Shown here piece by piece: positions 2,203 to 2,848 of a stretch of DNA of 64,000 nt. How positions within the stretch are numbered: position 1 is the stretch's first letter; every line of letters starts with the position of its first letter. The translations under genes were made by a program, and so were the position numbers. The stretch is taken from the NCBI RefSeq assembly GCF_055900595.2, contig NZ_CM148325.1; one strand, 5' to 3'. A model generated the notes under the pieces. The model searched no databases. It was not told the origin of the DNA and saw only the letters and a program-made list of their open reading frames with translations.

Positions 2203-2848
2203 GAGAAATCCTTTTCAATGAATGACATTTCAAATAATAAAATATGAGTAATAGATAAGAAATAGCCACAGGCTGTGTCATGATTTAATGTCTGCTCTTG
2301 AAATTTTATTTAGCAATCCCAGAACATTCAACTTAATTAGTATTTCGAAACCTCAATGTAGACACATAAAAAACAAATTATTCGATTACTTAGGCTATTT
2401 GTTGCATTATTACACATCCTCTAACAATAATCAGACAAAAAGCAATGTCAGCGTCAAATTGGGTAGCTGATTCATATTACTGACCACTCCGGAAATTCAT
2501 TCATCGTGAAAATATTAACATTTCAACCATGTTCCATTTAATCAACCCACTGAAAATCTGGAGGTTATCTACTGCGGTTTGTTGTTGACTGCCCCTGACA
2601 GGTTTACCAGGCGTTGACAGAAGATGAGGCTTGCAAGATGCTAAAAACAATGTGGTGTTACAAGCAATCCCATAAACCTCGTAACTTCACTGAAATGAGC
2701 GATGCCGTCCATATTTGGGTTGACTATAAAAACCCTTAATATTGAGGTTGATGATGATATTCATGATGGCATTGGAAAAATAGGACACCCATAAAATATC
2801 TATACAGCCTTTAAATTAAATCATTGAAATATCGCTGTTGCATAGTGC

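Follow-up and report, generated by a model that had tools for sequence, protein, structure and literature searches.

A haplotype of the variable ydbL-pdxI region of Escherichia coli that lacks the fea-tynA-paa island and carries a divergent UpaH/YdbA-family autotransporter gene

We analysed the region downstream of ydbL in a stretch of 64,000 nucleotides, here called the window. The window very probably represents one haplotype of a known variable chromosomal region of E. coli, bounded by ydbH-ynbE-ydbL on one side and by pdxI (ydbC) on the other. We put the probability of this reading at about 0.9, and the figure covers the explanation as a whole: the fea-tynA-paa island is absent, an orthologue of ydbA/upaH is in place, and the spacer and the passenger of the encoded adhesin are variable. 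The island-less gene order is common and already described in the literature. The uncommon element is the adhesin allele only, and this allele is already deposited and annotated.

The window is oriented in reverse relative to the K-12 map, so that both ydbL and the adhesin gene lie on the minus strand. Read along this strand, ydbH, ynbE and ydbL are followed by the spacer and then by a long open reading frame.

1..2202, minus strand: 5' part of the adhesin gene, a UpaH/YdbA/BigA-family type Va autotransporter; 734 codons without a stop in the translation
2203..2848, no strand assigned: spacer of 646 bp, AT-rich, between ydbL and the adhesin gene
2849..3175, minus strand: ydbL, 108 aa, with the stop codon TAA at 2849-2851
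3180..3365 and 3362..6001, minus strand: ynbE and ydbH, the conserved flank upstream of ydbL, from the annotation of relatives 99.9% identical over window positions 1..3400

The adhesin frame starts with an ATG at 2202, has a ribosome-binding site AAGGA 8 nt upstream, and remains open to window position 1. The ynbE/ydbH flank is 96.5% identical to K-12. The gene order in K-12 is ydbL-feaR-feaB-tynA-paaZ-paaA..K-paaXY-ynbG-ydbA'(IS2, IS30)-pdxI, in agreement with the initial annotation, which gave ydbL as followed by feaR-feaB-tynA, the paa cluster and then ydbA. Thus K-12 has an 18.8-kb fea-tynA-paa island between ydbL and ydbA, whereas the window haplotype has no island and an unrelated region upstream of the adhesin gene. 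The island (b1384-b1400) serves the catabolism of phenylethylamine and phenylacetate. That ydbL of the window leads straight into an adhesin-like gene, with no fea, tynA or paa genes between them, was already proposed in the initial annotation, and both the coordinates and tblastn bear this out. When the 18 K-12 island proteins were compared with the 64 kb, the only match was the paralogous aldehyde dehydrogenase gene puuC (61016..62425).

Relatives of the window were defined as matches of its positions 1..3400 among 5,426 complete E. coli genomes. Twelve chromosomes match this segment at 98.9% identity or more, and in a further five the match covers about 83% of the segment. Two of these genomes, Z0117EC0005 and E200086, show 5 differences from the window over its first 10,400 positions. 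In both, the adhesin is encoded by an intact gene of 5,493 bp (1830 aa, WP_032302967.1) located between ydbL and pdxI, and the 734 residues encoded in the window are 99.9% identical to the start of this protein. The gene had been described as intact. Within the window this holds for 734 codons; for the other 1,096, which are past window position 1, intactness is predicted from the near-identical genomes. Downstream of the adhesin gene the relatives continue with pdxI (ydbC), ydbD, ynbA-D, azoR and hrpA. That the fea and paa genes lie just beyond the window in another order had been named as a possible refutation; at this place the relatives have pdxI, ydbD and ynbA-D instead.

The island was searched for in all complete E. 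coli genomes by megablast with a chimeric query composed of window positions 1..2200, 900 nt of K-12 tynA and K-12 paaA. None of the 17 chromosomes carrying the window haplotype yielded a tynA or paaA match at the sensitivity of megablast, each of them matching the query in one place, the adhesin gene. Plasmids of these strains were covered in this search only as separate records. By comparison with these related chromosomes, the island is probably absent from the window's own genome as well. The suggestion that this genome lacks the island at the ydbL site therefore stands as observed for the site within the 64 kb, while its genome-wide form is extrapolated from the 17 chromosomes of the same haplotype.

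Over the whole set, tynA and/or paaA were found in 3,287 of the 5,426 genomes, so that about 39% of complete E. coli lack the island; the K-12-type ydbL-feaR junction was found in 3,291 genomes. The adhesin gene directly follows ydbL in CFT073, NU14 and FAH (phylogroup B2), in SMS-3-5, and in O157:H7 strain 86-24, whose copy is broken into two parts. This is in line with published surveys. All O157:H7 and neonatal-meningitis (NMEC) isolates and most UPEC isolates tested were PCR-negative for tynA, and CFT073 lacks a 33-kb area (PMC4640556). In a different panel, genomes of B2 and E had no paa (PMC5422975). The segment from ydbH-ynbE-ydbL to ynbC-ynbD-azoR has been called "a region of genomic heterogeneity", and about 42% of phylogroup A have a full-length ydbA (PMC4951805).

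The product of the adhesin gene has the following candidate regions.

2137..2202, minus strand: Sec-type signal peptide, residues 1-22 (MQKKTLLSACIAIALSGQSWG/A), read off the translation
1750..2136, minus strand: residues 23-151, with two conserved cysteines, a hydrophobic stretch at about 66-88, an acidic/histidine patch and a proline-rich linker; predicted to be disordered
1507..1749, minus strand: BigA/YdbA N-terminal small beta domain, residues 152-232, Pfam PF25784
1..1494, minus strand: start of the beta-helical passenger, residues 237-734, from the AlphaFold model

The signal peptide consists of MQKK, a hydrophobic core of 14 residues, and S-W-G before the cleavage site with A after it; this motif opens every allele compared. 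The N-terminal module with two cysteines, a hydrophobic stretch of 20 residues, an Asp/His patch and proline-rich repeats is also common to all alleles, and may correspond to the "hydrophobic region" described for UpaH. The Pfam match to BigA_N (PF25784) is strong (E 1e-25, 90 bits at a cut-off of 24.5), and the domain is modelled with pLDDT of about 90. The AlphaFold model of the 734 residues has a mean pLDDT of 77, exceeding 90 over most of residues 150-734 and falling below 50 for residues 1-144, where a single short helix is placed at 79-87. Residues 237-734 are modelled as regular turns of a three-strand beta-helix. The top Foldseek matches in the PDB are the passengers of Ag43, Vag8, TibA and pertactin. 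With E values of about 1e-4 to 1e-2 and low TM-scores these matches are weak, a usual outcome for long solenoids. When solved structures were searched by sequence, the C-terminus had no match and the N-terminus had matches only of the low-complexity beta-helix kind, and there was no detectable sequence similarity of the adhesin to any solved chain.

The C-terminal barrel characteristic of type Va autotransporters lies outside the window and was scored in a relative 99.9% identical over window positions 1..3400, whose last 399 residues match PF03797 (E 8e-19, 68.8 bits at a cut-off of 26). The full-length protein of this relative also carries BigA_beta and a sub-threshold match to auto_BigA. 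Thus, of the type Va features, the Sec signal peptide and the beta-helical passenger are found in the window and the PF03797 barrel in the relative. The features of the UpaH/YdbA/BigA subfamily found are the PF25784 domain and the position between ydbL and pdxI (ydbC). By analogy with type Va proteins and with UpaH, the adhesin would be exported by Sec, its C-terminal barrel would insert into the outer membrane, and the beta-helical passenger would be displayed as a biofilm or matrix-binding adhesin.

From sequence comparison and position, the gene is the positional and family orthologue of K-12 ydbA and UPEC upaH. The identification with ydbA, on which the initial annotation depended, is upheld by the position, by end-to-end alignment and by the BigA_N domain. 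Re-joined K-12 ydbA encodes 2020 residues without internal stops and aligns from first residue to last with the 1830-aa protein at 51% identity. This identity is very unevenly distributed: the window-encoded part reaches 35-56%, the last 430 residues 85-96%. At the nucleotide level, homology to K-12, as to other E. coli haplotypes, ends exactly at the stop codon of ydbL (window position 2851 for K-12); that to K-12 restarts within the adhesin gene, 1.68 kb short of its 3' end. K-12 ydbA (b4492) is a pseudogene split by IS2 and IS30, whereas the window gene has no IS element. However, the window does not have K-12 ydbA minus its IS elements, as had been implied; it has a very divergent allele of the gene.

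UpaH is an AIDA-I-type autotransporter of uropathogenic E. coli (Allsopp et al. 2010, 2012). In CFT073, the strain for which it was defined, it occupies the same slot, with ydbL followed by 374 bp, a large autotransporter gene and then pdxI. This order is consistent with the reported discovery of upaH in 6.5 kb of CFT073 sequence that had carried no annotation, and with K-12 ydbA as its disrupted homologue. The O157:H7 copy of the locus was named upaH by its depositors. The window-type adhesin and UpaH are alike in their family domains, N-terminal layout, beta-helical passenger and conserved beta-domain. On the other hand, identity between the window passenger and the B2-type (FAH) allele is about 40-55%, the spacer is unrelated to the B2 spacer, and the full window-type protein has 1830 aa, whereas Allsopp et al. 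are said to have given 2845 aa for UpaH of CFT073. BigA of Salmonella enterica resembles the window-type adhesin in its overall profile match and in having both BigA_N and BigA_beta. The full-length relative scores 959 bits with the NCBIfam BigA model NF033178, below its cut-off of 3400, and the adhesin is thus a relative of Salmonella BigA and not BigA itself. Ag43, TibA, AIDA-I and pertactin have a right-handed beta-helical passenger and a C-terminal PF03797 barrel, the latter found also in the relative of the window. Unlike these classical passengers, the window-type adhesin has an additional N-terminal disordered, proline-rich region and BigA_N.

By exact look-up, the sequence WP_032302967.1 is present on 41 contigs. 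The automatic names of this protein are "BigA/YdbA N-terminal beta-barrel domain-containing protein" or "autotransporter domain-containing protein". A large protein search, in which only the 8,000 candidates sharing most words were scored, gave family names that include UpaH and BigA but missed the cluster of this allele, which the exact look-up found. In several RefSeq genomes an adhesin of the YdbA/UpaH family (more than 2,300 aa) is labelled "EntS/YbdA MFS transporter", evidently by a mix-up of the names ydbA and ybdA in automatic annotation.

The region upstream of the adhesin gene was described initially as 645 bp long and AT-rich. It has 646 bp, one base more, and is AT-rich indeed: the GC content is 34.8%, compared with 50.3% for the whole window, with 30.7% in the adhesin-proximal half and 38.8% in the ydbL-proximal half. 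The spacer was found in 17 of the 5,426 complete E. coli genomes, each time beside the same adhesin allele, and in all 17 RefSeq annotation places nothing inside it. Its small open reading frames, of at most 60 aa, are likewise unannotated in these 17 genomes. The parts of the spacer that can be told apart are as follows.

2203..2518, minus strand: adhesin-proximal half, 31% GC, with distant homology to the sequence that precedes the SMS-3-5 allele
2303..2331, minus strand: candidate sigma-70 promoter TTGAAT-17-TAAAAT from a consensus scan, about 100 nt upstream of the ATG
2519..2848, no strand assigned: ydbL-proximal half, delimited by sequence comparison

The adhesin-proximal half is 61% identical to the SMS-3-5 spacer over 316 nt (E 6e-19). 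For the ydbL-proximal half (330 bp), no similarity could be detected to the K-12, B2, O157 or SMS-3-5 spacers. The spacer is predicted to hold the promoter and regulatory region of the adhesin gene. The consensus scan produced 5 promoter sites where 3.8 are expected by chance, which is not significant, and the candidate promoter is thus a weak one. No terminator was found in the spacer, no Rfam match in 1800..3400 at E up to 1, and no tandem repeat in 1..3400. Direct and inverted repeats in the spacer are short and at chance level, and the predicted fold of the ydbL-proximal 160 nt is not better than that of shuffled sequence (z = 0.63). Allsopp et al. reportedly showed in 2012 that H-NS represses upaH. 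By analogy, the AT-rich spacer would carry the adhesin promoter and would probably be silenced by H-NS. The 35% GC of the spacer is compatible with H-NS binding, and proves nothing.

One may ask whether the locus is simply that of K-12 with the island precisely absent or deleted, in which case the spacer would consist of the two K-12 junctions joined. Sites of this kind exist. The 374-bp spacer of B2 strains (FAH, CFT073) starts with nt 1-64 of the K-12 ydbL-feaR spacer (97% identity) and continues with nt 14-330 of the K-12 paaY-ydbA spacer (80% identity). Scarred deletions are known as well, in which ydbL is followed by a remnant of feaR, a remnant of paaY and the adhesin gene (e.g. EH01-18-04-A). 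However, sensitive blastn with 7-nt words found nothing significant between the window spacer and either K-12 junction (best E 0.09), and no remnant of the 18 K-12 island proteins was detected in it by tblastn. The adjoining passenger, moreover, has only the low identity to K-12 YdbA given above. An alignment of 2203..2848 to the K-12 ydbL-feaR and paaY-ydbA junctions had been suggested at the outset; it revealed no colinearity. We consider a simple empty site at this locus exceedingly doubtful. As for the K-12 island itself (about 18.8 kb; K-12 locus positions 8271/8272 and 27075/27076), its edges are sharp when compared with the B2 empty site, and neither obvious direct repeats nor mobility genes were observed at these junctions. 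Nor is it plausible that the fea, tynA and paa genes are present and merely moved elsewhere in the genome or just outside the window. The window spans only 64 kb, which leaves room for such a relocation, but the relatives continue past the adhesin gene with the usual genes up to hrpA, the chimeric query found the adhesin place alone in 17 of 17 chromosomes of the haplotype, and in the inspected genomes that have the island it sits at the ydbL site. The chance of this is close to negligible.

The divergence of the adhesin gene raises another possibility, namely that a non-orthologous autotransporter gene was inserted beside ydbL by horizontal transfer and replaced both ydbA and the island. Indeed, across the spacer and the first 3.8 kb of the gene, other E. 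coli haplotypes show hardly any similarity at the nucleotide level, the GC content is 46% in this divergent part against 54.5% in the 3' part of the gene, and the haplotype is rare (17/5,426). On the other hand, no repeat, tRNA or mobility gene borders the block. Colinearity of the protein with YdbA extends over its full length and includes the signal motif, the cysteine pair, the hydrophobic/proline-rich region, BigA_N, BigA_beta and the barrel. The last 430 residues and pdxI show the identity normal for E. coli, and the SMS-3-5, O157 and B2 haplotypes are equally divergent from one another. The colinearity, the normal identity of the C-terminus and the equal divergence of the other haplotypes indicate allelic diversification or recombination at one locus rather than insertion, and we regard the latter as very unlikely.

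The window passenger is thus best described as a very divergent, rare allele, present in 17 of the 5,426 genomes. The passengers of the K-12, B2, O157, SMS-3-5 and window alleles are about 40-50% identical in pairwise comparisons. Marked differences among strains in the passenger sequence of UpaH have been noted previously (PMC12525524). In five of the 17 genomes the alleles are mosaic: the spacer and roughly the first 1.6 kb are in common, and the sequences diverge thereafter. Since the spacer and the passenger are divergent, whereas the flanks and the beta-domain are conserved, the variable unit is formed by the spacer together with the passenger, bounded by ydbL and the beta-domain. The variable block would most likely result from diversifying selection on a surface antigen combined with allele exchange, in which ydbL and the beta-domain would serve as anchors for homologous recombination. 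Whether the paa island is there or not is a separate matter, a clean insertion or deletion seen in other lineages.

Identity of the flank to other strains falls toward the junction, from 97-99% at 3-5 kb to 88-92% in the last 355 nt, and to 76-78% in the same 355 nt for O157:H7. Over window positions 2849..3600, comprising ydbL, ynbE and the 3' end of ydbH, the divergence climbs steadily toward the variable locus, and it does so in all comparisons made. Such a gradient is expected where a locus is under diversifying selection and its flank includes recombination breakpoints or parts of old haplotypes.

A stronger version of allelic diversification is that the spacer and passenger form a block that represents an old, separately maintained class of upaH/ydbA alleles, or an import from a divergent Escherichia lineage, with its own regulatory region and a different binding specificity. 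A regulatory region of its own is suggested because 2519..2848 resembles nothing in the other haplotypes compared. We consider this version rather unlikely; if true, the locus would exemplify balancing or diversifying selection acting over the long term on an E. coli surface adhesin.

Several other features of the window were observed. Over the 25 kb of backbone at 6100..31000, identity to the window reaches 99% or more in only 8 of the 5,426 complete E. coli genomes, among them E200086 from Mali (100%). All other genomes are 95-99% identical (about 97% among the matches listed), whatever their phylogroup. The window backbone belongs to a rarely sequenced lineage, which may be a deep-branching lineage of E. 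coli. At about 13432..14977, uspF adjoins ttcA, and in the annotation of a relative there is no remnant of a prophage or integrase beside ttcA. At this site K-12 carries the Rac prophage. CFT073 keeps an integrase fragment there, whereas the window-type relative has none.

An insert of 2.1 kb (34134..36230, plus strand) was found between tpx (33530..34033) and tyrR (36268..37836); it encodes a protein of 680 aa. The insert is present in 30 of the 5,426 complete E. coli genomes, tpx and tyrR being about 300 bp apart elsewhere. The 680-aa protein has no sequence match in Pfam, NCBIfam, PADLOC or the PDB. Nine clusters of homologues were found, from E. coli, from Salmonella enterica (56-59% identity) and one from Aliirhizobium. 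The Salmonella homologue adjoins IS remnants and genes encoding proteins with TsiV (T6SS immunity), DUF4034 and DUF1266 domains, a neighbourhood that hints at a toxin/immunity islet. AlphaFold models the protein as an alpha-helical TPR-like solenoid with pLDDT of 66 and generic fold matches only.

For the organism, the absence of the island predicts that neither phenylethylamine nor phenylacetate supports growth, a trait already known from O157:H7 and from most B2 strains. Beyond correct annotation, the finding matters little. An intact UpaH/YdbA-type adhesin may be a biofilm or colonisation factor, and any use of UpaH as a typing marker or vaccine antigen would have to take into account how extremely diverse the alleles of this locus are.
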